Virus record (IMG/VR): IMGVR_UViG_3300029939_000002
Direction: 5' to 3' (one strand)
Length of the DNA stretch: 57,212 nucleotides
Source: an uncultured virus (IMG/VR IMGVR_UViG_3300029939_000002)
Lineage: Duplodnaviria > Heunggongvirae > Uroviricota > Caudoviricetes
The notes under the pieces were generated by a model that did no database searches, had not been told where the DNA came from, and saw only the letters and a program-made list of their open reading frames with translations. This document shows positions 16,983 through 32,775 of this stretch, piece after piece (the stretch's first letter is position 1; each line of letters begins with the position of its first letter). Both the position numbers and the translations under genes were made by a program.

Positions 16983-18206
16983 TTATTTTCCGATTACGGA
17001 CTGAACTTTTGAGAAACTGGCCGGTGTCCACTTGTTATATCGACGCATGAACAACATGCCGAGACTTACAGTCTCGATCGTCCCGTCTTCGAATTTCACC
17101 ACGAAAGTTCCGTCGGTATTTCTCGCAGTAATACAGACTTCGTATCCGTCCTTGTCAAACACACCAGAATTACACCAAGTCTGTATCTGAGTATCCTGAG
17201 AAGGAGCTCCAACAACAGTCTCGATGTTATCTTTATCGAAATTCAATGTACGAATATCGATGGGTGCCGGCCGGCCAGAGGATTTACGAGGAGCCGGAGC
17301 TTCCTCAGTAGAAGAAACATTAGAGACGGGCTCCTGTTTTTCCTCAGGCATATCTGTCGGCTTTTCTTCGACAGAGTTACTGCCAACCGGAAAGACATCT
17401 TCGCCATCTTCGTCGACATCACCTCGATGCTCATCGTTCCGCAGAAACATCACTGGACCAAGTCTCTCAGTCCGAACTATACCAGGAACATAAAGAGCAT
17501 TCGACATTCTGGCAGCATCTTCTGTCGAAGAAACATTGGAGACTGTAAACTCATCTTCGATGTCTTCCTCATTATCGGGCTGGCGACTATTCTGTTGTTG
17601 ATACAACGAAACATCTCTAGTCTGATTCACGGGATGTCGTGTATATTCGCGACCAAGCATTTTACGCTGCTGCTCAACCACACCACGCAGAGAAGATTCT
17701 TCCGGTCTAAAATTGCAAATTTGTGCCAGATCGACGAGGTCGTATCCAGACGACATGATCTCGCGGCTGATCTGACCACTCACCACGGCAAAGACAGGGA
17801 CGACGCCGCGCTTGGAGAGGGTGTCTGCCAACTTCACAAAATCCGAATCATTCGTCGCAAGAATAACACGTTTATATCCTTTAATAGACAAGGTATCGCA
17901 AGCGATATCAAGATCCATATTTCCTTTAATAATAGTTCTTCCAGTAGCCTGATCCACGATGATCTTAGCATCTTTGGTAATCATTCGAAATCCATTTGTC
18001 GACAACCAACGATAAAAGCCATGATTCTTTGTGTATCCGTTTTCATCGGTAACAATAGATGTGTAATAATTAAACAACACAACATCGTAGTTATCAACAA
18101 AGTATCTACGAATAACATCCCAGTCAAAACGATTGTTGGGGTAGATAGAGATGCAAGTACTAGTGACATTAGCACCATCAATAACCATAAGGGTCGTATT
18201 AGACAT
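16983..18206 (-). CDS. NYN (LabA/DUF88, PIN-like) ribonuclease domain with long acidic linker and small C-terminal domain
   Basis: VIDGAN, KGNMDLDIACD and LATNDSDF motifs; start MSNTT has a GAGGA SD; promoter motif at 18268-18275. Confidence 0.88.
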   Translation of the reverse strand: MSNTTLMVIDGANVTSTCISIYPNNRFDWDVIRRYFVDNYDVVLFNYYTSIVTDENGYTKNHGFYRWLSTNGFRMITKDAKIIVDQATGRTIIKGNMDLDIACDTLSIKGYKRVILATNDSDFVKLADTLSKRGVVPVFAVVSGQISREIMSSGYDLVDLAQICNFRPEESSLRGVVEQQRKMLGREYTRHPVNQTRDVSLYQQQNSRQPDNEEDIEDEFTVSNVSSTEDAARMSNALYVPGIVRTERLGPVMFLRNDEHRGDVDEDGEDVFPVGSNSVEEKPTDMPEEKQEPVSNVSSTEEAPAPRKSSGRPAPIDIRTLNFDKDNIETVVGAPSQDTQIQTWCNSGVFDKDGYEVCITARNTDGTFVVKFEDGTIETVSLGMLFMRRYNKWTPASFSKVQSVIGK

Positions 18207-18357
18207 TTGCTTGTTCCTCTGAATATATTTGAACCGATATGCTGTTAAGCACATTTTCTTCAATTTAATAATATATATTTGTTTTATTTTTGAATACAAA
18301 AAATAAAGAATATCTATGAGATGCATTAGCATCTCATAGACACAACGGATGCTAAAT

Positions 18358-18603
18358 TTAAGCAACAGCCTCATCATACGTAAATCGATACTCGTATTTG
18401 AGTGCCAGGAACACAGCCTGGATTTTGTACAAATTTATTTCTTTGTCTGCTTTGTCGAGCTCGGACAGAAGTTCCAAAATATCGGAAACTTCGCACTTCA
18501 TGTCCATGGACAATTGTTTTATTGTTTTGTTTTCAGCACGCAGAACACTTCTGATCTTTGCCGCTGTATCGAAGCACAGTTGGGAATAACGAGCGTCGTT
18601 CAT
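18358..18603 (-). CDS. Small XRE/Cro-like helix-turn-helix protein
   Basis: KIRSVLRAENKTIKQLSMDMKCEVSDILELL pattern; AAGGA SD. Confidence 0.55.
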   Translation of the reverse strand: MNDARYSQLCFDTAAKIRSVLRAENKTIKQLSMDMKCEVSDILELLSELDKADKEINLYKIQAVFLALKYEYRFTYDEAVA

Positions 18604-22248: not shown

Positions 22249-23121
22249 TTATTGTGGTTCGGATTCACAAGCTTCGTCGGTAATCTCTTTGTTATCAATA
22301 TACTCTGATTTTGATACTAAAAGTTTAGGAATAGGTGGAAGATTTAATTGGTCCTTGTTTTCTTCATCGTATGTTTCTGTATCTAAAGATACTGCATGCA
22401 ATTTAAACATCTTTCTATTAAACCGTTCATCATAAGCTCTTTTAGTACGACATGGATGACAATCACCACATTCAATTATTTCATTATTTCTTTCATAAGG
22501 GAATTCGCAAGTCCACACCAAATGATATAAGTCTCTATCTTTTAAAGCATTAACAACTTGTTCTTTTGTACGCGCAGCCATCACATTACCATTAGGTCTA
22601 CATAAAGGGAACAAAAGGTTGGTCGTTTTTCCAAATGTTATATAAGTAAGATTTTCGAAAATATAGACGAGATAATCTAACATTCCAATAATACTATCTC
22701 CGGTGATATACCCGATATTTAAAGATGCGTGGTAAGGTTGTAATACATAGATACTTGTTATAATCCAACTCGGCGGTTGACAAAGACAGACATGATTGTT
22801 AAGAATACCTCCTCTAAAATCAAGCCCATCGTCGACAACAAACCATTTTATAACCTTACCAAATTTAATATCTTTTTTGTCTTTTTCGTTTTTTATTTCT
22901 TTTAGTGCATTTAAGATGTCTTTTATAGCTTGTTTTTCTCTTTTATATTTATTGACATCTTGGCCACAATAAATAGTCAAAATATCAATATTATTACCAC
23001 TTTCTAATTCTTCTAAGATCATATATGTTGAATCCAGACCACCACTCATTAAGAACAGTTTTCTATCTTCTTGGTGTGACTGATCGGTATTAAGATCTAT
23101 AGTCTCATATGTCGGATACAT
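22249..23121 (-). CDS. queC: QueC-like PP-loop ATPase (7-cyano-7-deazaguanine synthase family)
   Basis: LMSGGLDST PP-loop, Y.GQ...E, TK..V, WTCEFP...ECGDCHPC zinc site. Confidence 0.85.
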   Translation of the reverse strand: MYPTYETIDLNTDQSHQEDRKLFLMSGGLDSTYMILEELESGNNIDILTIYCGQDVNKYKREKQAIKDILNALKEIKNEKDKKDIKFGKVIKWFVVDDGLDFRGGILNNHVCLCQPPSWIITSIYVLQPYHASLNIGYITGDSIIGMLDYLVYIFENLTYITFGKTTNLLFPLCRPNGNVMAARTKEQVVNALKDRDLYHLVWTCEFPYERNNEIIECGDCHPCRTKRAYDERFNRKMFKLHAVSLDTETYDEENKDQLNLPPIPKLLVSKSEYIDNKEITDEACESEPQ

Positions 23122-23167: not shown

Positions 23168-23560
23168 TCACTTAAATTCAAAAATAAGATCTTTTTTATT
23201 ATTATAAACTTCTTGTATTTTATTATTAATTATATTAAAATGAAACTCTACAAATCTATCTGGATACCCAAACGCAGGATATAGAGTTAATAATCGGTTA
23301 TCAAAATCTATCCATTCGTCATTAGTAGAAAATTTTCCTGTATTAACCATGTCTATATATATTTGAGTAAAAATACTATGCGAAGATCTACCAATATCTC
23401 TTATTTTTAGATAACCCTCTCTGGAAAATTCATAGTGAATAAGATCGCATGATAGTTGTTTTGTCTGAAACGTAACAAAAGGTTCGTTTTTAAATCTGTG
23501 TGGAATAAATATATTAAATTTATTGTCAGTAGGTATATAAAAATTATCATACATCCCCAT
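23168..23560 (-). CDS. Hypothetical protein (MGMYD...FQTK type)
   Basis: 130-aa ORF. Confidence 0.7.
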   Translation of the reverse strand: MGMYDNFYIPTDNKFNIFIPHRFKNEPFVTFQTKQLSCDLIHYEFSREGYLKIRDIGRSSHSIFTQIYIDMVNTGKFSTNDEWIDFDNRLLTLYPAFGYPDRFVEFHFNIINNKIQEVYNNKKDLIFEFK

Positions 23561-24290
23561 TTGTATTTTCCTTATTAATACTGATATATTTAATTTCTAT
23601 ATTAAGTTTTCCAGGAACCTGAACTTTGCTTGGACCATAAACTACCTCAGCATCCAAGTCGTTTACTTCTCTTTTAAAAACTTGTAATACTGATTCATCA
23701 GAAGTAAAACTCAATTCTGTATCGACTTTATAGTTATTTTCTCCAAATAATTTTACCATTTTTCTATTTTCTAATCTAACAATTTTATCAAGAACTTCAG
23801 GATCTTTGGATATTGATAAATATGAATTTGTTTGTTCCGTTAAGCTTTCTGAATCAGTACTATATATACCAGATGATATTTTCGTACTATCTATCTGGGT
23901 AGATGTTATGACATTAATATTGAAGTCTTTAACAACTTTACTAAATCTATCATACATATCTTTATACATTTTAAGAGAATATGGATTATTATTACAAGAA
24001 GCACCATACAGGGAATTCCATCTAAGTTTTATCACATCATTAAAATAAATTACTGCCCTATTTATGTTTCTTGCTTTCATAATGAGACGTAAATAATAGC
24101 TATCAGATTTATAAGTATTATCGATATAGTCTTTTAATTTTATCTTTATTTTAATATTAACAACAATACAATCAGGTATAGCAGTGTTGATATATTGTTT
24201 AATTTTACGTATAGCATTTAATTTTCTAATATTATCTTTTTTATATCTAGCCAGCCTCTTTTTATTAGCAGATCGTATTTTCATAAGCAT
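23547..24290 (-). CDS. Hypothetical protein
   Basis: 247-aa ORF; promoter motif at 24326-24333. Confidence 0.65.
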   Translation of the reverse strand: MLMKIRSANKKRLARYKKDNIRKLNAIRKIKQYINTAIPDCIVVNIKIKIKLKDYIDNTYKSDSYYLRLIMKARNINRAVIYFNDVIKLRWNSLYGASCNNNPYSLKMYKDMYDRFSKVVKDFNINVITSTQIDSTKISSGIYSTDSESLTEQTNSYLSISKDPEVLDKIVRLENRKMVKLFGENNYKVDTELSFTSDESVLQVFKREVNDLDAEVVYGPSKVQVPGKLNIEIKYISINKENTNGDV

Positions 24291-24415
24291 TATCCTTTTG
24301 AGAAGCTATAGTGTGTTTCAATTAAATAATATATATTTTATAACTTTATGAAAAAAATAAAATAGAGAACAGGATGGTCCGTCGGACCATCCTGTTCGTC
24401 GTATCTTGCAGAAAA

Positions 24416-24491
24416 TGGCTGGGATAGTAGGACTCGAACCTACGACATGGTGGTTAACAGCCACCCGCTCTACCAACTGAGCTATATCCCA
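24416..24491 (-). tRNA. tRNA-Asn(GTT)
   Basis: Cloverleaf TGGGATA...CT-GTT-AA...GTTCGA...TATCCCA-G-CCA. Confidence 0.95.
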
Positions 24492-24496
24492 TCATT

Positions 24497-24573
24497 TGGT
24501 GCCCGCAGTAGGATTCGAACCCACGACCCCCGGATTACAAATCCGGTGCTCTACCAGCTAAAGCTATACGGGC
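24497..24573 (-). tRNA. tRNA-Thr(TGT)
   Basis: Cloverleaf, CCGGA-TTTGTAA-TCCGG anticodon arm, encoded CCA. Confidence 0.93.
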
Positions 24574-25007
24574 ACTAAATGAAATTATAAAATAAATAAA
24601 TTGCTTTTTTGTGACATATTATTATCATCTGTTTTTAATGTTAAGTTTTATACAAAAAACAAATGTGTGATAGTTTGTTAGACTATCACACACTCATTCT
24701 AATACATCTTCACTTTAAAGACTATTTACGTAATGCATCAGCCATGGTTCTATGCACATCAAATATTCTTTTTCTGCCAACATAATCATCATGTGCCGAA
24801 ACGGCATCTTTATAATGAACATATGTATATACCGTGCCTTTGTCACCATTGAGGAATAATACTCCATATTGTCCGTCTTCGTCTGGAGTATTATCAACAG
24901 AGACAGACTCTAAATTCGTAAGAGTGAGATGGGTTGCTGTGGATCATTTCCTTTTGGGATATATGTACTATCAAGATGTCCATATGCTTTGGTAATTTCA
25001 GATTTTA

Positions 25008-25313
25008 TTATTCGTCAACAACGATAGCAAGACGAAGGCCCATACTTTTCAAGATCCTAGAGATCGTAAGAAGTCTAGGAAGACGATTCTGTCGCAGAGC
25101 ATAATAAATGCCCTGCTTAGTAACATCAGAGTTACTAACGATTTTCTCGACGCCGATAAGTCTGATAGCATTTTGAAGTTCTTCAGGAAATATCGTATTG
25201 TGGTTTTGATCTTTTTTGAAGAGATCGTCCAGATGTTTAGCCATATCTTCACGATGAGATAGCTCATCGATAGGATGAGCAATAGATACCATTTGATAAT
25301 TCATGATAGTCAC
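25008..25313 (-). CDS. Addiction-module antidote-like HTH protein (HI1420-downstream type)
   Basis: G...I......KQGIYYAL.....P.L.TI..IL..MGLRL pattern; promoter motif at 25331-25338. Confidence 0.75.
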   Translation of the reverse strand: MTIMNYQMVSIAHPIDELSHREDMAKHLDDLFKKDQNHNTIFPEELQNAIRLIGVEKIVSNSDVTKQGIYYALRQNRLPRLLTISRILKSMGLRLAIVVDE

Positions 25314-25387
25314 TCCATATTTCTAAATAAGTAATATATATTTATTTTTTGTATAAAACTCAAAATGTATTAAAAAATAAATGAACT

Positions 25388-25424
25388 TGTCACATACATG
25401 GACATTACGTCCATGCATGTGACA
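25388..25424 (-). terminator. Intrinsic terminator closing the RNA island
   Basis: TGTCACATGCATGGAC-loop-GTCCATGTATGTGACA hairpin followed by a U-rich tract on the minus strand. Confidence 0.65.
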
Positions 25425-25858
25425 GCCCGATAACATCGACCTAAAAGTTAAGTGGAATTTAGAATGGTTTCATCGATCGCTTGGCGTCCGATGGCAAACA
25501 TAGTTCGCATCCCTGGTTACATCACCATAAGTTTTTTAACACACCAGGACTTTGGTAAGTCATTAATCTTATCTCGGTCGTCAGACTTACAATTTATCCC
25601 GAGACCAGCCCGTTTCACTGATTTCTAGCGACTATGGCCAAAATGCCGATCCGAAGATGGACACCCTCTAACCATTAATGCATTTGTATGCTTTTCCGAC
25701 AACACTGACACATACATGCCGGTGAGCAGTCCAGACTCAGTTAACGGAGCCAAAACTTTTAAAAGAACCGATACACTGTCCCCACTTTCATGGATCGGTG
25801 TGCATACTCAAATGCCTTACTCAGAAGGACCCGAAACTGAAGAAGATGTATGGCAGCT
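25425..25858 (-). ncRNA. Structured non-coding region including an H-type pseudoknot (25555-25605)
   Basis: No credible ORF; interleaved stems GTCTCGG/CCGAGAT and GTAAGTC/GACTTAC; further hairpins. Confidence 0.55.
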
Positions 25859-25903
25859 TAGCGATCCCAGTAGGACTCGAACCTACGACCTGCCGCTTAG
25901 AAG
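25859..25903 (-). pseudogene. 3' half of tRNA-Arg(TCT) (anticodon loop to acceptor; ends CTA)
   Basis: CTTCTAA-GCGGC-AGGTC-GTAGG-TTCGAGT-CCTAC-TGGGATC-G-CTA; no adjacent 5' half. Confidence 0.8.
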
Positions 25904-25919
25904 ATATATGGTATCTTAG

Positions 25920-25962
25920 TGGTCTCCAGGTCAGACTCAGACCGACTATCCCGGATTAGAAT
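25920..25962 (-). pseudogene. Second, degenerate 3' half of a TCT-anticodon tRNA
   Basis: TTCTAA-TCCGG-GATA-GTCGG-TCTGAGT-CTGAC-CTGGAGA-CCA. Confidence 0.55.
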
Positions 25963-25974
25963 ATTTTAAATGAT

Positions 25975-26054
25975 TGGCGCCGCAGGAGGGATTCGAACCC
26001 CCATGTGTCCAGTTACTCTTTCAATAGCTTAGAAGGCCAAGGAGATACTGCGGC
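25975..26054 (-). ncRNA. Non-canonical tRNA-Arg(TCT)-like RNA with no D-arm before the anticodon arm and a D-loop-like segment after it
   Basis: GCCGCAG/CTGCGGC acceptor, G-CCA end, canonical T-arm, TGGC-CTTCTAA-GCTA arm, then TAACTGGACA. Confidence 0.8.
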
Positions 26055-26066
26055 GAATTCAATGTA

Positions 26067-26074
26067 TTAATATA
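26067..26074 (-). promoter_or_regulatory. Early promoter variant (TATATTAA) immediately upstream of the tRNA-like RNA
   Basis: Same ATATATATT context as the other copies. Confidence 0.6.
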
Positions 26075-26131
26075 TATTTATCTTTGAAATAAAAAATAAG
26101 CAGCTGCCTGAAGAATTTAATATGTATAAAC

Positions 26132-27270
26132 TAAGGAGAACACCGAACATAGCAACATCGGGGGATTGTGTTGCGCGGAGGCCCATTCCGTGTTCGGTGT
26201 TCACCTTAATCTACACTAAAGAAACCGTAGTGGGAGACCTTTTCACGGATCTCCCACATAGCGGGTTGGCGGTGACAAAATCACTTCATGCCTTGCTTTC
26301 AGACACAGAACACTTATGGACACAGCAGTTGTGTGTATACGGAAATGATCCCAAGATAACTCTCATCGTATGTTCACCGCAGGATAGTCCCTGAGTGACT
26401 CCAGATGACTTAAGTTAGAGCCGGCGATCGTAGTCCTGGTATACCTTCCATGTTCTTCAGCCTGTTAGCAGATCGTTGACGAGTTACGCCCATATCCATA
26501 CATCGGCCGGACCGGTGCGGATTAAGACATATGCCAAAACATACGATCTAAAGCAGGAAAGTTGTCCGTTCGAGACGGACCGATATTCTCTCGATACACT
26601 GGGTGTCAATGCATGAAAGAACAACAGAGCCCAGTTAGGAGGCCATATCACACAGTCTCCAAACCCGGCTGTTCGCCACCGCTCATCATTCATCATTTTG
26701 GACCACATAGGACAACTCCTAGGCGTACTACGGTGATGAGGGATAGATGGTTAACCTTAAGCGGTAAACTGTTATGTCATTGAGTCATAACAGCTTTGTG
26801 ATAAACATTTCAACAAACGAGGGTTTTCTCCGAGAGAGTCAATAAAAATGTTCAGATAAGGACAATGTGGTTATTATAACCTGTGCGCATGCGAAGCATG
26901 GCATCAATTCCACTAGATCCTCGTAGCGCAATGGTTTCTTGGGGGCACATGGGTCTGGACACTGTTACCAGATATCCAGCATGATGGCTTTGTTCTCACC
27001 CATACTGTTGCTACCATCTTTTTGAAGGTGTAAATGTTCACCTAAGATGTCTGAACATGTTCATTAACTCTTTAGAGAGTACAACTTCATCGTTGGTGTT
27101 TTTTTTACTTATGCTACATGACATAGCTATCTCTGCCGAGGCATTGCACCTCAGATGTGGTCTTAGAAGTTCAATCTATGAAGAACGAACCTGCATGATC
27201 TGGTCATGCTTATATCTCCTGAGGTTACCTATTACAGTACGGAGAGATCTGAACTTCCAACTAGACCGTT
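26132..27270 (-). ncRNA. Series of structured RNA domains (unknown ncRNAs)
   Basis: GC-elevated, no credible ORF; long-range closing helices at 26132-26208, 26365-26547, 26848-27058 and 27159-27267. Confidence 0.6.
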
Positions 27271-27282
27271 ATGGAAAAAGGT

Positions 27283-27358
27283 TGGTGGACGCGGTAGGAT
27301 TCGAACCTACGACCAGACCGTTATGAGCGGTCGGCACTAACCGCTGTGCTACGCGTCC
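27283..27358 (-). tRNA. tRNA with CAT anticodon, probably Ile2 (lysidine) rather than Met
   Basis: GACCG-CTCATAA-CGGTC arm; paired G1-C72, no initiator GGG/CCC. Confidence 0.9.
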
Positions 27359-27431
27359 ATTTCCTTTATAACATGAGTTTATCAATATCTAAAAGAAGAC
27401 ATAGATAAGCTCGTCTCTTGTTTTAAAAAAA

Positions 27432-27507
27432 TGGTGAGCATGATGGGGCTCGAACCCATGACATCTCGATTAAAAGTCGAGTACTCTACCAACTGAGTTA
27501 CGTGCTC
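27432..27507 (-). tRNA. tRNA-Lys(TTT)
   Basis: CTCGA-CTTTTAA-TCGAG anticodon arm, encoded CCA. Confidence 0.95.
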
Positions 27508-27566
27508 ATTGTATGTCATCGAAAATTGTTGGTGGAGGGGTGTAAGTTATAACTTACACCCCCTCA

Positions 27567-27655
27567 TGGTGCGCGTAGTGGGGATCGAACCCACGGTGTT
27601 TCTTATGTGTCAGATTTTAAGTCTGATGCGTTTCAGCCAGCTTCGCCATACGCGC
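27567..27655 (-). tRNA. tRNA-Leu(TAA)
   Basis: TCAGA-CTTAAAA-TCTGA arm, long variable arm, encoded CCA. Confidence 0.93.
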
Positions 27656-27659
27656 TTGC

Positions 27660-29100
27660 AGATGCTCTGGATTCCACAGAGCTCATCGTGTGGGGTACGA
27701 CTCCTATCAGATGTGTATATCTGCCGATCTCATAATGCAAATGCTATTAACATCCATGGGGGCATTACATCCGATAGTATGATGTTGATCAGATCATCGG
27801 ATCTGACTTTTCCGACATCACATAGTTTACAGGACAAATTAGTTACCTGCTCTACGATACCAATCTTGAGCAAGTCCTCTGATCTGGAGGGTTCGTGGAG
27901 AACGACATATCTGCCAGAAGATGCCCGAAATAAATCGCGCATAGCCAACTGCACAAAATGCTAGTCAGCAAGCTGGGTCTCAGTCTAACGGTATCGCCAC
28001 TTAAGAGGTTTCGCGAGATGTGTCTGGTGGATCAGATGGCATTTTTTCAGCCCAAACCCACCAGACACATGCTCACTTGTAGATTTAGAGACACGGTCTC
28101 AACTGTATATCTACCAGAGTTAGTGCGATACCAGATTGCGGGATACATGACCCTTATCCAGACAACACACAGTTATTACGTTCGTCGTGGTATTAACAAT
28201 GTAAAGAACAAACACACAATGGATCACATATGGATCACTGTCGTGTATAAGTCATAGATAATCACAGTTCCCTTCTTGGGAATCGTATGATCATCTCATT
28301 GCACACCGCCACATCATCGATCATCTATAGCTGATCTCAACGGCGTGTTTACCACAACAAACATCTTCGATATGCCAGCATCTACAGCAACGATAAAACG
28401 TCGCATAATATCAGCGCCAGCACACCTGGTCAGTACTTTGTCCTGCCTGTTAGACCATCGTCGTAACTAGGTTTCGATCTATGGCTATAGATCATCTTCA
28501 GTAACTTGGACAAAGAAAGAAAACTCATGAAAACAAAGCGTGCTCATGTGGGAATATTCCGGTATTCCATATTGGTATCTTCTACGGCGTCATCCCCTCC
28601 AAGGACCAGGACACGGCATTGACAACAACTCCACACGAGAACTCTCAAGTCAACCGACGCAACAAGGTGTTTAGGTCCGTTAATTCCATGCACCTTGACC
28701 AGAATGTTGTATTTCTACAAGTCGACTTGATATTTGCTATACATCTGCATTATCAGGACTTTTAAAACATGCTTCGAAAACTGATAGTCGCCGGATTGCA
28801 TGTTAGTGGCAGATGTTACGGTGTTGTGCTAGCACACTGACCTGCATGTGGTTAGCCGTCCTGACGCGAAGGGCGCGGATGTTACCTTCGTCACAACACT
28901 ATCTTAATTATACTCTCAACATATACCCAGGTTTAGATGATTTTCATCACCTTGGTCGAGAGCCCACAGTTGACTAATACACTAAAATGAGAAAGGACAC
29001 TCATTTTCCTGGAGAACGGATCACAGCGGGGCGGTGCGGATCAGAGCAGAAGGTTGCTACACTGTGAAATTCAACTGTAGTTTAACTTTTTATGATCAGG
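27660..29100 (-). ncRNA. About 1.4 kb of structured non-coding sequence between an early promoter and tRNA-Leu
   Basis: No credible ORF; many helices, e.g. 13-bp ATGTGTCTGGTGG/CCACCAGACACAT nested inside GGTATCGC/GCGATACC (27990-28132). Confidence 0.6.
28436..28515 (-). ncRNA. Type I hammerhead ribozyme
   Basis: CUGAAGA core, stem II GAUCUAU-AGCC-AUAGAUC, GAAA, short imperfect stem III, GUC cleavage triplet, stem I CUUUGUCC-AA-GUUA/UAAC-AGGCA-GGACAAAG. Confidence 0.85.
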
Positions 29101-29110
29101 TTCCAATAAA

Positions 29111-29118
29111 TTAATATA
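29111..29118 (-). promoter_or_regulatory. Early promoter variant heading the RNA island
   Basis: ATATATATTAA. Confidence 0.6.
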
Positions 29119-29149
29119 TATGTATAAATATTTTGAAACTTATTTAACA

Positions 29150-29239
29150 TGGCGGATGGGGTGGGATTCGAACCCACGGTAAGCTCACACCTACGACGGT
29201 TTTCAAGACCGTTGCCTTAAACCACTCGGCCACCCATCC
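29150..29239 (-). tRNA. tRNA-Ser(TGA)
   Basis: ACGGT-CTTGAAA-ACCGT arm, long variable arm, G-CCA end. Confidence 0.95.
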
Positions 29240-29265
29240 TTTTTCCATATCAACTGAGTCAAATA

Positions 29266-29589
29266 TTATTCGATATCGGTATCATTGTAATTGAAAATAA
29301 CGATCCGACGACCATTGATAGCATCACCGATGATCTTTGTTCCTGGAACAAAAGTCACGGCTTCTGCCACAGCATACGATCCGTCAGGACTGCGCTGTTG
29401 CGTTGTCACCTGGACAACACAGCCAACACCAACGATTTCCATAGCTTTGGTCGACTTCATCCAACCCTGTTCCTGGGAACTAGCTTTGCAGATAAGTTGG
29501 AAGGTATCGCCATTACCAAAGACCTTCAGATCGCTGATGTTCTTTTTAGCACCATTGATATCGGTGACGTCCATATTTTTTTCAATCAT
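29266..29589 (-). CDS. Small phage protein (GWMKSTKAMEI.GVGCVVQVTTQQ type)
   Basis: 107 aa, GGAG SD, GC-richer codons. Confidence 0.8.
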   Translation of the reverse strand: MIEKNMDVTDINGAKKNISDLKVFGNGDTFQLICKASSQEQGWMKSTKAMEIVGVGCVVQVTTQQRSPDGSYAVAEAVTFVPGTKIIGDAINGRRIVIFNYNDTDIE

Positions 29590-29628
29590 TTTTCGACTCC
29601 ATTTTCACAAACATATAATAAATACTAT

Positions 29629-30066
29629 CTATATTTTTTTATTTCTCATAGCACGACGAGGCCTTTTATATCTTTCGATATTAATAATATTATCATCTGG
29701 AAGCTTTGCCATAGATCTAATAATAGTATCAACAGTAGGCATCATAGCAGATGAATCAGTTATATCTTTGAGTTCTGGATGTTCTTTAAGATATTGATTT
29801 GTATTTTCAATATATCTATTAAGATCTTCATTTGTATAATAAAGACCAGTATATTTAGGATCAGTTAATTTACCATCAGAACCATATGCTCTACCGGTCT
29901 TTAATGCGAATCCTTTTTTAAGAGCATTATCCATGTAAGAAACAACTTCATGTAATTCACAATTAATATACCATTTTAAATTATCAGTTTCACCAGCTCT
30001 AAATCCTTCATCGGATGGTGCTGTAAATGGAAGAGTATCAAAAGTATATTCAAAATCTTTATCCAT
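29629..30066 (-). CDS. Hypothetical protein
   Basis: 145-aa ORF with AGGAG SD. Confidence 0.7.
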   Translation of the reverse strand: MDKDFEYTFDTLPFTAPSDEGFRAGETDNLKWYINCELHEVVSYMDNALKKGFALKTGRAYGSDGKLTDPKYTGLYYTNEDLNRYIENTNQYLKEHPELKDITDSSAMMPTVDTIIRSMAKLPDDNIINIERYKRPRRAMRNKKI

Positions 30067-30082
30067 AAAGATGCTCCTTTTT

Positions 30083-32197
30083 CTAAGCCCTTAATTTCAA
30101 CATAAGATTATAAAAAGATTTATTTTGATAATAGTGAGCATTTGTATTGAATTCATAATTTTCATTCGCTGCAACTTTATGAGCCAATTTCTTGATTTCA
30201 TCACTTGAAATATTATTATTATCATTAATAGCTGTAATGAATATATCTTCATCTTTAGTCATTTCATTATTAGTATGTCCCATGAGATCATAAACAGAAG
30301 ATCTACTCCATTCGAGAATTTCTTCAAGTCTTGTAGCTAGATTGGCTTCTTTAGTATTGAGTAATAGTTTATAAACATAAACTTGAGTATCTTGTCCAAG
30401 TCTAAATGCTCGCGCAATAGCTTGTTCCATTTCATAATCTCTAAATGGAAGATTAAAGAAAATAATAATATTTGCAACAATGAGAGTTATGCCAGTAGAC
30501 ATAGATTGTATTGTTGCTAATAATGGATTTACTGTTTTGTCTGATTTAAATTTATCTATGATATTACCAAGATCTGCATTCGTATCACCATAAACACAAA
30601 GAGGATTAAACCCGGCTTCTTTAAAATATCTTTCACCTTCTTTAATAGCATCAACATAATTACTAAAACATATAGTTTTCTTTTCAGCATTTTTAACAAT
30701 TTCATCAAGGCCTGCATGTCTAATAAGTTCTTTGTGTAGCTCTACTCTTTTCCTACCTATTTCTGCTAACCATTCTCCCATAACAACCATCTTAACATAT
30801 TTAACAACTGATTTAGATTTAATAAACTTATCTTTTATATCCTTAGGTAGATTGGGTATAATCTTAGTCTTTTCATAAGTATTACAATAAATAGACATGA
30901 AACCCATGGTAATAGGATCGTATCCTTTCTTTATCTTATTAATATAATCGAGATATACATTAAACTCATGAAGATCTTCTTTCGATTTTAATGTTCTTTC
31001 GTGATCTCTTATAACCGATATAAATAGTTTTTCATGTACATCCATCTCTTTATCATATTTTGTCATTTTATCTATAAAGAATTTCTTACACTCTATTTTT
31101 AAAAACGGTAAAGTATATTTGTCACTATCTGGTAATGTAATAGAAATAGTTTTTTCAATGGGTTTTTCAGATCCCATAATAGCAGACTTAGGAATTGTAT
31201 GTGAAACTAATGATATTCTATTCTGTAAGATATGGGCAGCAGATCCTGCCGATCTACTATAGATTTTTAAGAACCTATCTTTAGCATAATCATCAAATAA
31301 CGGATCTGTAACTTGTAACAATGGCACAACTTCTCTACCAAGTGCTTTCAGTGGAGTACCAGATGCCGGAACGATGTTTTGTGCATTTGATGCTTCACAA
31401 CATTCAATATAAATATTGGTTCTCATAGAACCTAATTCATTAAGATTATGACACTCATCTATACCAATAAACACTGAAGGATATTTATGTTTATGAAAGA
31501 ATTGTAATAGTTTACCAATAGCTTCATAATGAATAAAATACCAATCATAACCAGGAACGATTTCATCTTGTTCATCTGACCTAAATACTTTCAACTTATT
31601 CTTCTTACCAAAAGACTTTGGAAGTTCTTCATCGACCCATACTTTTGAAATCGTATGTTTTGGACAAATAATAACTTTGAATTTAGCTTCTGAACATAAA
31701 CCCATAGCAAGTAACATACCAGATTTACCACTACCAGTCGCTGCATCCAGTAAGAAACCTCTTAATTTTAACTTAGGAATCTTTAAATTATATTCTTTTA
31801 ATGCTTCCAATTGAATAGGAAGTAATGGCCTAGACAATTCAGACAATCTACTTAGATTTAAAGGTACTGATTTTGGTGGCTCAAAAGCAGACTTATACCA
31901 AGTATGTAATTCTATTTGTTTTAAGAGATCCTTAATGTGTGATCTAGTTGTATATATATGCCCTTTTGTCAGCAAGATCTTAGTTAATATATAGTAGAGA
32001 TCTGGTATAAAAAACTTATGAATAACAAATTTATTATATGTTGCTTTATGTAACATATATTTTTCAATAAGTGGAGACCCTAATGTCTTAACAAAATCTC
32101 GTCTTAAATTATTTGATTGTATATTCGAAAGAGTAACAAATTTAGAACCTGGAGTTTCTTCTACTTTTATAGAAAAAATATTTAGGATAGAAAACAT
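30083..32197 (-). CDS. Superfamily 2 (DExH, SNF2-like) helicase
   Basis: DAATGSGKS, IDECHN, SGT, STGITL and QAIARAFRLGQ motifs; GGAGGA SD before ATG 32197. Confidence 0.9.
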   Translation of the reverse strand: MFSILNIFSIKVEETPGSKFVTLSNIQSNNLRRDFVKTLGSPLIEKYMLHKATYNKFVIHKFFIPDLYYILTKILLTKGHIYTTRSHIKDLLKQIELHTWYKSAFEPPKSVPLNLSRLSELSRPLLPIQLEALKEYNLKIPKLKLRGFLLDAATGSGKSGMLLAMGLCSEAKFKVIICPKHTISKVWVDEELPKSFGKKNKLKVFRSDEQDEIVPGYDWYFIHYEAIGKLLQFFHKHKYPSVFIGIDECHNLNELGSMRTNIYIECCEASNAQNIVPASGTPLKALGREVVPLLQVTDPLFDDYAKDRFLKIYSRSAGSAAHILQNRISLVSHTIPKSAIMGSEKPIEKTISITLPDSDKYTLPFLKIECKKFFIDKMTKYDKEMDVHEKLFISVIRDHERTLKSKEDLHEFNVYLDYINKIKKGYDPITMGFMSIYCNTYEKTKIIPNLPKDIKDKFIKSKSVVKYVKMVVMGEWLAEIGRKRVELHKELIRHAGLDEIVKNAEKKTICFSNYVDAIKEGERYFKEAGFNPLCVYGDTNADLGNIIDKFKSDKTVNPLLATIQSMSTGITLIVANIIIFFNLPFRDYEMEQAIARAFRLGQDTQVYVYKLLLNTKEANLATRLEEILEWSRSSVYDLMGHTNNEMTKDEDIFITAINDNNNISSDEIKKLAHKVAANENYEFNTNAHYYQNKSFYNLMLKLRA

Positions 32198-32262
32198 GTA
32201 TCCTCCTAATAAAAAGAATCTATACAATGTTTTAAGGGGGAATATTATTCCCCCTTATATTC

Positions 32263-32775
32263 TTATGATTCTATTATTTCATAGCCATACGGTCGCCATT
32301 CCGATTCTTTAAATTCTCCATTGAGAAAAGGTTCGTATGTTAAAACAGAATAACCACCAGGTTTGCTTCTATCTTTATCGAATTGTAAACCAATAACCAT
32401 GTGAGCAAAATGAGGACATATTTCAACACCATAGTAAAACAGTCCACTACACTGCCCACGATAGTCCATGTTTTATCAAAATAAATAGGAGTTTTATCAA
32501 AACAATGCTCAAAAACATCCATATTTTTAAATACATTCCAACCATGAAGTCTTGCTTTCTCTAAAGGATTTTCAACAAAATTACTACCTACTAATCCTTC
32601 GATGTAACCGACATCTTCAAAATTTAAAATAGCATATGTTAGTGAGTTCGAGAAACACGCTTTTCGTTTTCCTCGTTCAACTATCTTTCTTGTAATGGGA
32701 CTTATTCTATTAAACTTACCATACTTTTTTTAAGAAAGCAGTGACTTTTTCACGATCAAATTGAATATCAGACAT
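32263..32775 (-). pseudogene. Doubly frameshifted ~170-codon gene with a Cys-His-Asp (papain/transglutaminase-like) pattern
   Basis: MSDIQ... start with GAGGA SD; an extra A in an A7 run (32725-32731) and a missing base near 32467 split the CFSNS..YIEG..HGW..DKTW..YYGV sequence across two frames. Confidence 0.65.

Follow-up and report, generated by a model that had tools for sequence, protein, structure and literature searches.

We identified a type I hammerhead ribozyme on the minus strand of a 57,212-nt stretch of phage DNA (the window), whose source is a 208,374-base virus record. Judged from its sequence, the motif is a real hammerhead of a known class with a predicted cleavage site, and it is probably active. 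It carries an extra U after A9, the mark of a type I sub-type that has likely been taken up by a phiKZ-like jumbo phage as a 5'-maturation device of a large non-coding RNA.

On the strength of its protein matches, the phage is classed as a phiKZ-like jumbo phage. Pfam matches among the proteins of the genome were the phiKZ major capsid protein, gp28, gp29PR, a divergent DnaB and tubulin; PHROGs matches were phage RNA polymerase subunits and PhuZ; and the helicase adjoining the non-coding stretch showed 32-35% identity to helicases of phiKZ-like phages. The sequencing runs containing the stretch carry the label peat metagenome. The nearest relatives of the helicase and DnaB-like proteins were 44-53% identical, so no close phage was available for comparison. 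The region at about 25400-29150 has a G+C content of 42-49% versus 26-33% in the flanking genes; no convincing gene was found in it, and it is interspersed with tRNA genes, all on the minus strand. The features of the locus are collected in Table 1.

Table 1. Coordinates of the ribozyme locus, given as positions in the window.
Feature	Position	Strand	Basis or remark
tRNA-Ser(UGA)	29150..29239	-	upstream boundary
AT-rich promoter-like motif	29111..29119	-	putative start of non-coding transcript near 29105
5' leader without genes, weakly folded, RNA cover lower	28516..29105	-	z -0.9 to -1.1
Type I hammerhead ribozyme, extra U after A9	28436..28515	-	core, descriptor scan, family model
Distal stem I, 8 bp	28515-28508/28443-28436	-	
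Proximal stem I, 4 bp	28505-28502/28452-28449	-	
Core C3-A9	28501-28495	-	
Inserted U	28494	-	same insertion in family
Stem II, 7 bp, loop AGCC	28493-28476	-	stem II pair probability 0.97
G12-A13-A14	28475-28473	-	
A15.1-U16.1	28472/28454	-	
C17	28453	-	
Stem III, UA/GAY internal-loop module and UACG loop	28454..28472	-	constrained fold; module search
Pseudoknot	G28485, C28484, C28483 with C28445, G28446, G28447	-	register from family covariation
Predicted cleavage site after C17 (GUC)	28452..28453	-	hammerhead rule; one RNA contig begins at 28452
Competing hairpin hiding cut site and proximal stem I	28446..28471	-	probability 0.95-0.99 in secondary-structure models
3' product, 797 nt, gene-free, strongly folded, abundant	27656..28452	-	folding z, contig depth
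Strand pairing with 28445-28437, closing a 616-nt product domain	27830..27838	-	displaces distal stem I; probability 0.95 in product
tRNA-Leu(UAA)	27567..27655	-	directly abuts 3' product; putative RNase P boundary
Perfect 13-bp inverted repeat behind tRNA-Leu	27537..27562	-	possible terminator or processing stem

Other features were seen in and around the tRNA cluster. Two degenerate tRNA-like elements (minus strand, 25978-26054 and 25862-25915), both with a UCU anticodon-like loop, were not called by ARAGORN; the former, without a D arm and with a long variable arm, scored 29.2 bits versus 24.7 for the latter. An addiction-module antidote-like HTH gene (25008-25313, minus; PF21716, with TIGR02684 below the cut-off) stands alone within the cluster. 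Directly before tRNA-Ser lies a G+C-rich 107-aa gene (29266-29589, minus; 4684 relatives, precomputed PF26760), which is unusually folded for a gene (z -4.0). An NYN-domain nuclease gene (16986-18377) and a QueC-like gene (22249-23121), both on the minus strand, are near the cluster. Elsewhere in the genome, several 1-2 kb islands have 50-56% G+C against 32% overall (near genome positions 142001, 154001-156000, 162001, 182001 and 206001). No shell protein was named among the 22 proteins scanned.

Every element of the core described in the earlier note, including the extra U, was found in place on the minus strand. The conserved nucleotides of the hammerhead class (C3-U4-G5-A6-N7-G8-A9, G12-A13-A14, A15.1-U16.1 and H17) are all there, and three helices can form around the core and G10.1-C11.1: stem I of 4 + 8 bp, stem II of 7 bp and stem III of 3 + 2 bp. 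Since C17 is 28453, the cut is predicted at 28453/28452, the position named earlier. Hammerhead cleavage after H17 gives 2',3'-cyclic phosphate and 5'-OH ends. A descriptor allowing one base after A9 matched once in the window and twice in the 208-kb genome; among block-shuffled windows, loose matches occurred in 7/100 and matches with a stem II of at least 7 bp in 0/100. At 26453-26476, a segment resembling the flank of the cut site was considered as a second ribozyme and rejected; it is without a GAAA partner, and contigs cross it.

The check proposed in the earlier note, a search with Rfam hammerhead models, came out negative. RF00163, RF00008, RF03152 and the other hammerhead models did not reach the gathering threshold and gave no match to the ribozyme at E up to 10; the same search tool did detect other hammerheads. 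Rfam searches of the window, cluster, ribozyme and product found no hammerhead, GOLLD, ROOL, tmRNA, intron or RNase P. We then used sequence patterns. The first, consisting of the core, the extra U and the loop letters GCC, matched at least 114 viral loci, several of which have an AAGC tail and take the type I hammerhead fold. A second pattern without the loop letters matched at least 125 loci, at least 105 of them distinct; 91 of the 105 distinct viral matches listed fold with a stem I of at least 3 bp, a stem II of at least 4 bp and a stem III of at least 2 bp. In genomes, 73 of the 122 distinct matches listed fold, and 41 of 44 folding loci (among 80 titled loci listed) bear Bacillota labels, as read from titles. 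At 13 family loci, no Rfam hammerhead match was obtained at E up to 5.

Of the 91 folding viral members, 88 have a 5-bp stem I. In the 86 whose stem II domain is 19 or 21 nt long, loop II pairs with the tail. In these 86, the first pseudoknot position is G-C in 85, the second is C-G in 84 (plus 2 U-G), and a third pair is present in 85 (G-C 69, U-A 7, G-U 6, A-U 3). The 79 Watson-Crick pairs at the third position, against a shuffle mean of 61, were reached in 0/2000 shuffles. In an alignment of 79 of the 91 members, 98.9% of cells were paired and 12 of 17 pairs changed on both sides, as compensatory changes do. Since the sequences had been selected for folding, the stems are favoured by construction, but the pseudoknot is not. 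The GCC/GGC contact between loop II and stem I, proposed from the single sequence, is a pseudoknot of 3 bp whose register is the one that shows covariation across this family.

A family model, built from the aligned relatives with the phage copy left out, found 28441-28508 at 26.2 bits with an E-value of 6.6e-5, its calibration being rough; the runner-up scored 11.9. The assignment to the type I class is thus backed by an independent model as well as by family covariation. A chance arrangement of bases is hardly conceivable and already largely refuted: the missing Rfam match and the loose descriptor matches in shuffled windows would allow it, but no shuffle came up to the observed stringency, the family model reaches a low E-value, and the pseudoknot register and stem III module are shared with other hammerheads. 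Family-model searches of phiKZ-like records gave no match; one such search also missed the phage copy, so these negatives carry little weight.

The phage copy shares the family's U after A9, 6-8 bp stem II and pairing of loop GC with tail GC. It departs from the family in having no 5-bp stem I, no AAGC tail and no gene start within about 100 nt; instead it has a 4-bp proximal stem I with an 8-bp extension, an AGGC tail and no gene. Compared with the family, its proximal stem I and its stem II domain are short by one unit each. A C-G pseudoknot pair is added where the family has U-A in 47/86 and otherwise a mismatch, and the outer pseudoknot pair, the family's most variable one, is an A-A mismatch. 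Stem II is A-U-rich versus G-C-rich in the family, with 7/7 pairs kept. A pattern with the phage copy's own geometry folded in 1/7 distinct viral matches (itself) and in 0/93 metagenome matches listed. By this comparison of sequences, the phage hammerhead is therefore a divergent member of the extra-U, AAGC-tail sub-type. The insertion after A9, which the earlier note took to be tolerated, is present in all 91 folded family matches, being part of the search pattern, and is tolerated in the portion of PMC3705267 available. The sub-type may already stand in the alignments of Perreault et al. (2011; PMC3088659).

Family members occur two or three times within 0.3-1 kb at L220, L193, L228, L232, L495 and L510, each before a small gene. 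At L110:1805-1857, some 300 nt behind a hammerhead of the family, Rfam identified a twister ribozyme of type P5.

Stem III had been described as short and imperfect. It consists instead of two helical segments, 3 bp and then 2 bp, with a UA/GAU internal loop between them and a UACG loop at the end, and this arrangement recurs. The module pattern occurred at 40 loci, 37 of them distinct, and 34 of the 37 were hammerheads (29 type I including the phage copy, and 5 type II). Four letters of the pattern overlap the type I core, so the test is only partly independent. On this recurrence we read stem III as a conserved module and not as a decayed stem; the Rfam models miss this recurrent module as well. 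Three clustered hammerheads were found on a 161-kb phage contig (L577:804-3120), the third of which shares this stem III module; behind it, about 1.2 kb free of any 60-aa frame extends to a tRNA-Glu. This is possibly the same architecture as the peat-phage locus, with no sequence likeness. Another locus, L591, is a type II hammerhead that appears to combine the extra U with the stem III module.

The hammerhead is not the minimum-energy fold of its own sequence. Secondary-structure models prefer a competing hairpin, in which the stem III loop takes up both the cut site and stem I's 3' strand, with -24.3 kcal/mol versus -15.9 kcal/mol for the hammerhead; in longer contexts its probability was 0.95-0.99. 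The rival-fold gap of 8.6 kcal/mol was an outlier among 91 relatives (median 0.0, maximum 4.5). The stem III loop is an exact repeat of the 4-nt 5' strand of stem I. Since the energies omit the pseudoknot, core and internal-loop pairs, the active fold may still be reached; the modelled folds make a slow or regulated cut likely.

The hairpin at 28471-28446 could be a selected OFF state, so that cleavage would need a trigger (transcription rate, protein, ions or temperature) and maturation of the large RNA would be timed. The outlying energy gap and the exact repeat in the stem III loop speak for such a regulated ribozyme. We regard it as unlikely, because the same bases are explicable as a U-A pair and UACG loop on the conserved module, the nearest-neighbour energies take no account of pseudoknot, core or non-standard pairs, the site is not crossed by any contig although a large uncut fraction should produce such contigs, and there is no homologue for testing conservation. 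The hairpin could also mean that a captured hammerhead has decayed and is locked in the rival fold, the 5' end then coming from a nuclease or an internal promoter. The high modelled probability of the rival fold, the shortened stem I and the lack, among the matches listed, of close relatives with the same geometry agree with this, but we give it a poor chance: the core is intact, stem II has been re-written in A-U pairs without a mismatch, a C-G pseudoknot pair and an 8-bp stem I extension have been added, and one RNA contig starts at the exact predicted base. A working ribozyme with a slow or partial cut is the reading that we carry forward.

RNA from peat was compared with the locus. In six RNA runs, 0.38-0.64 of the sampled words were present, and contigs of four of these runs were compared with 23500-32500; these data, from four 2024 peat studies that may form one campaign, are assembled contigs, which are unable to show ends or levels. 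Near-identical contigs covered 27572-28422 (depth 151), 27772-28432 (118), 27692-28416 (110) and 28050-28452 (18). Over the 3' product, contig depth was 95-151 in three runs and 18 in the fourth. The upstream ends of these contigs (28452, 28432, 28422 and 28416) lie 0-36 nt downstream of the predicted cut in 4/4 runs. Only one of the four is exactly at the cut: the first letter of contig 28050-28452 is 28452, the predicted start of the 3' product, with the orientation checked on records with listed adapter lengths. There are 10 upstream-facing contig ends in 27656-29110, and one exact match is an event of about 0.7% if ends are uniform. The listed records account in full for the bin depths, so none of the four runs covers 28453-28540, and no contig crosses the cut site. 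We did not accept this hole as proof of a cut by itself, because the same runs have further holes. Taken as hints, the contig ends point to a cut at the predicted site.

Leader contigs were thinner (depth 3-64), and the helicase gene was almost uncovered (0-3.6). All nine listed adapter ends (6 contigs, 3 runs) share one polarity, with 92 loose ends outside the listing; this fits stranded minus-strand RNA if the libraries are of the usual kind. Contigs of the four runs contained no joints of circular or spliced products.

Within the window, the promoter-like motif has 20 minus-strand and 4 plus-strand occurrences, most of them intergenic; genome-wide it is not enriched (48 versus a shuffle mean of 38.9 and maximum of 49). 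We take the motif at 29111-29119 to resemble the phiKZ early promoter. That promoter is described only verbally in the available part of PMC8244752. RBS-led frames in the leader encode only 8-14 aa, and no RBS-led frame of 35 aa occurs within 600 nt of the phage cut site. Among relatives with enough flank, an RBS-led frame lies within 300 nt of the cut in 57/62 (within 100 nt in 52), and a tRNA lies within 2 kb in only 4/59 family loci; because of this gene context, the hammerhead family appears normally to make mRNA 5' ends.

The 797-nt product gave a folding z of -6.7 (20 shuffles), and its 624-nt core gave -7.0 (16 shuffles); as controls, the helicase gave +1.1 and a G+C-rich coding gene -4.0. 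The earlier note held that the cut splits the transcript into about 650 and 800 nt. The split fits the RNA contigs and the folding, but the start near 29105 is putative and the transcript goes on into tRNA-Leu, as contigs do in 2/4 runs. The two pieces are also unequal, the 3' piece being abundant and strongly folded and the 5' piece neither. RNase P makes tRNA 5' ends. Since the contigs continue into tRNA-Leu, we infer the 3' end of the product from this activity.

Searches of 50,697 phage records, of 30 viral records (28 phiKZ-like, many fragmentary) and of the surroundings of the hammerhead loci examined yielded no homologue of the product, and Rfam gave no match except chance microRNA hairpins. 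Only three near-identical copies of the large RNA were obtained (99.98-100%), which are useless for covariation; with no homologue, the product fold is therefore without covariation support. Its predicted closing helix begins 7 nt from the cut. Distal stem I had a probability of 0.96 in an RNA ending at 27900 and of 0.04 once 27838-27830 was present. A 9-nt complement was reached in 45/2000 shuffles, so the closing helix is only modestly beyond chance. The bases of distal stem I can thus re-pair with 27838-27830, and the models suggest product release and one-way cleavage.

It is quite unlikely that the cut serves only tRNA-operon processing or leader turnover, with the 797 nt as a structured spacer without a job of its own. 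The contigs that join the stretch to tRNA-Leu would suit this, as would the lack of a homologue or family for the 797 nt in the records searched, and phage tRNA processing with the help of a ribozyme has a precedent in theta ribozymes (PMC10879173, as far as its available text goes). Against it, 797 nt separate the cut from the tRNA, the 5' end of which is made by RNase P in any case; folding and abundance of the stretch far exceed those of the leader; and the closing helix starts next to the cut.

Similar stretches lie further along the cluster. The segment 26100-27270 (minus), between tRNA-Met and a promoter-like motif, is gene-free and strongly folded (z -7.9 and -8.3 for its halves), with no Rfam match; at 26280-26622, RNA contig depth was 78-108 in 3/4 runs. 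It is a candidate for one or more further large RNAs. A third gene-free stretch at 25380-25860 (minus) has z -3.1 and RNA contigs in 2/4 runs.

We propose the following course for 5' maturation of the large RNA. First, a phage promoter near 29115, from which the start is assumed, would drive a transcript over the gene-free stretch into tRNA-Leu; strand and cover are taken from the RNA contigs. Second, during synthesis, the loop II pseudoknot together with distal stem I (8 bp) would hold the ribozyme, which would cut after C28453 into a leader with a 2',3'-cyclic phosphate and a product with a 5'-OH; here the fold is drawn from homology, the cut is hinted at by contig ends, and the chemistry is established hammerhead knowledge. 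The competing hairpin would probably make this cut slow or partial. Third, 27838-27830 is predicted to pair with the 5' end of the product, strip the leader and block re-ligation. Fourth, RNase P at tRNA-Leu would make the 3' end. Finally, the leader would decay and an RNA of 620-800 nt would accumulate.

Self-cutting RNAs are well known in phages. Perreault et al. (2011; PMC3088659) describe phage hammerheads, clustering around genes and, for about 40% of hammerheads, pseudoknots; in the available text of PMC6765202, the biological job of phage hammerheads is an open question. The peat-phage ribozyme shares with phage and prophage type I hammerheads (PMC3088659; Najeh et al., 2023, PMC10187678; Rfam clan CL00010) the core, topology, GUC site and phage setting, a pseudoknot replacing the loop-loop contact and, as proposed in the accessible parts of these papers, transcript processing. 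It differs from those described there in the extra U after A9, in being undetected by Rfam models and in the competing hairpin; the published ones flank genes, whereas this one precedes a 797-nt non-coding RNA and tRNAs. The same one-base insertion between A9 and G10.1 occurs in viroid hammerheads (CChMVd plus strand), where, in the part of PMC3705267 available, A-to-U at the insertion raised trans-cleavage 3-4-fold; the available part of PMC10085705 likewise notes one- or two-base insertions next to the core. Unlike the viroid ribozymes, the present one is type I in a DNA phage with no circular RNA replicon, and its insertion marks a large phage and Bacillota sub-type. The pseudoknot hammerhead crystallised in PMC11300833 has, in the portion available, a different topology.

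Theta ribozymes (Kienbeck et al., 2024; PMC10879173) are likewise self-cleaving RNAs in phage tRNA regions that replace a host nuclease. They have an HDV-like fold and, in the available text, trim tRNA 3' trailers directly, whereas the peat-phage hammerhead is 797 nt upstream of the tRNA. An HDV-like double pseudoknot 3' of a tRNA was not found here; the fold is a hammerhead, 700 nt behind tRNA-Ser. The product resembles GOLLD (RF02032) and ROOL (RF03087), as described in the available part of Kretsch et al. (2025; PMC12286853), in being 600-800 nt, gene-free, strongly folded, abundant and beside phage tRNA genes. Neither the conserved 3' domain of GOLLD nor ROOL had a match in the product or window, and those RNAs have a covarying multi-stem structure with pseudoknots and an RNA-only cage, whereas the product is likened to them by size, folding, abundance and setting. 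A ribozyme-made 5' end, predicted for the product, is not mentioned for GOLLD or ROOL in that part of PMC12286853. By analogy with what is supposed for GOLLD/ROOL, the likeliest job of the large RNA may be to act as an abundant scaffold or decoy made of RNA only; we put this forward tentatively.

Our literature search, with most subscription literature outside it, found no report of a hammerhead maturing a large jumbo-phage RNA or of the extra-U sub-type. The ribozyme class and its ordinary chemistry are already known; what is new is the uncatalogued sub-type, its re-use before a non-coding RNA of large size and the prediction of two folding switches, both of them testable. The sub-type is common (distinct sequences number at least 91 in viruses and at least 73 in genomes), and Rfam models miss it. 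The peat-phage case supplies a named substrate for a phage hammerhead, with a predicted cut that matches the end of an environmental RNA contig, and points to a large abundant phage RNA outside the catalogued families. It is possible, if somewhat doubtful, that the 3' product represents, as its first member, a new class of large RNA-only structures of 620-800 nt in phiKZ-like jumbo phages, matured by a one-way switch in which an anti-ribozyme hairpin restrains the hammerhead, the cut occurs briefly during transcription and the closing helix strips the leader. If this is true, the cluster, together with the strongly folded, expressed RNAs at 27270-26100, would be a 3.7-kb RNA operon.
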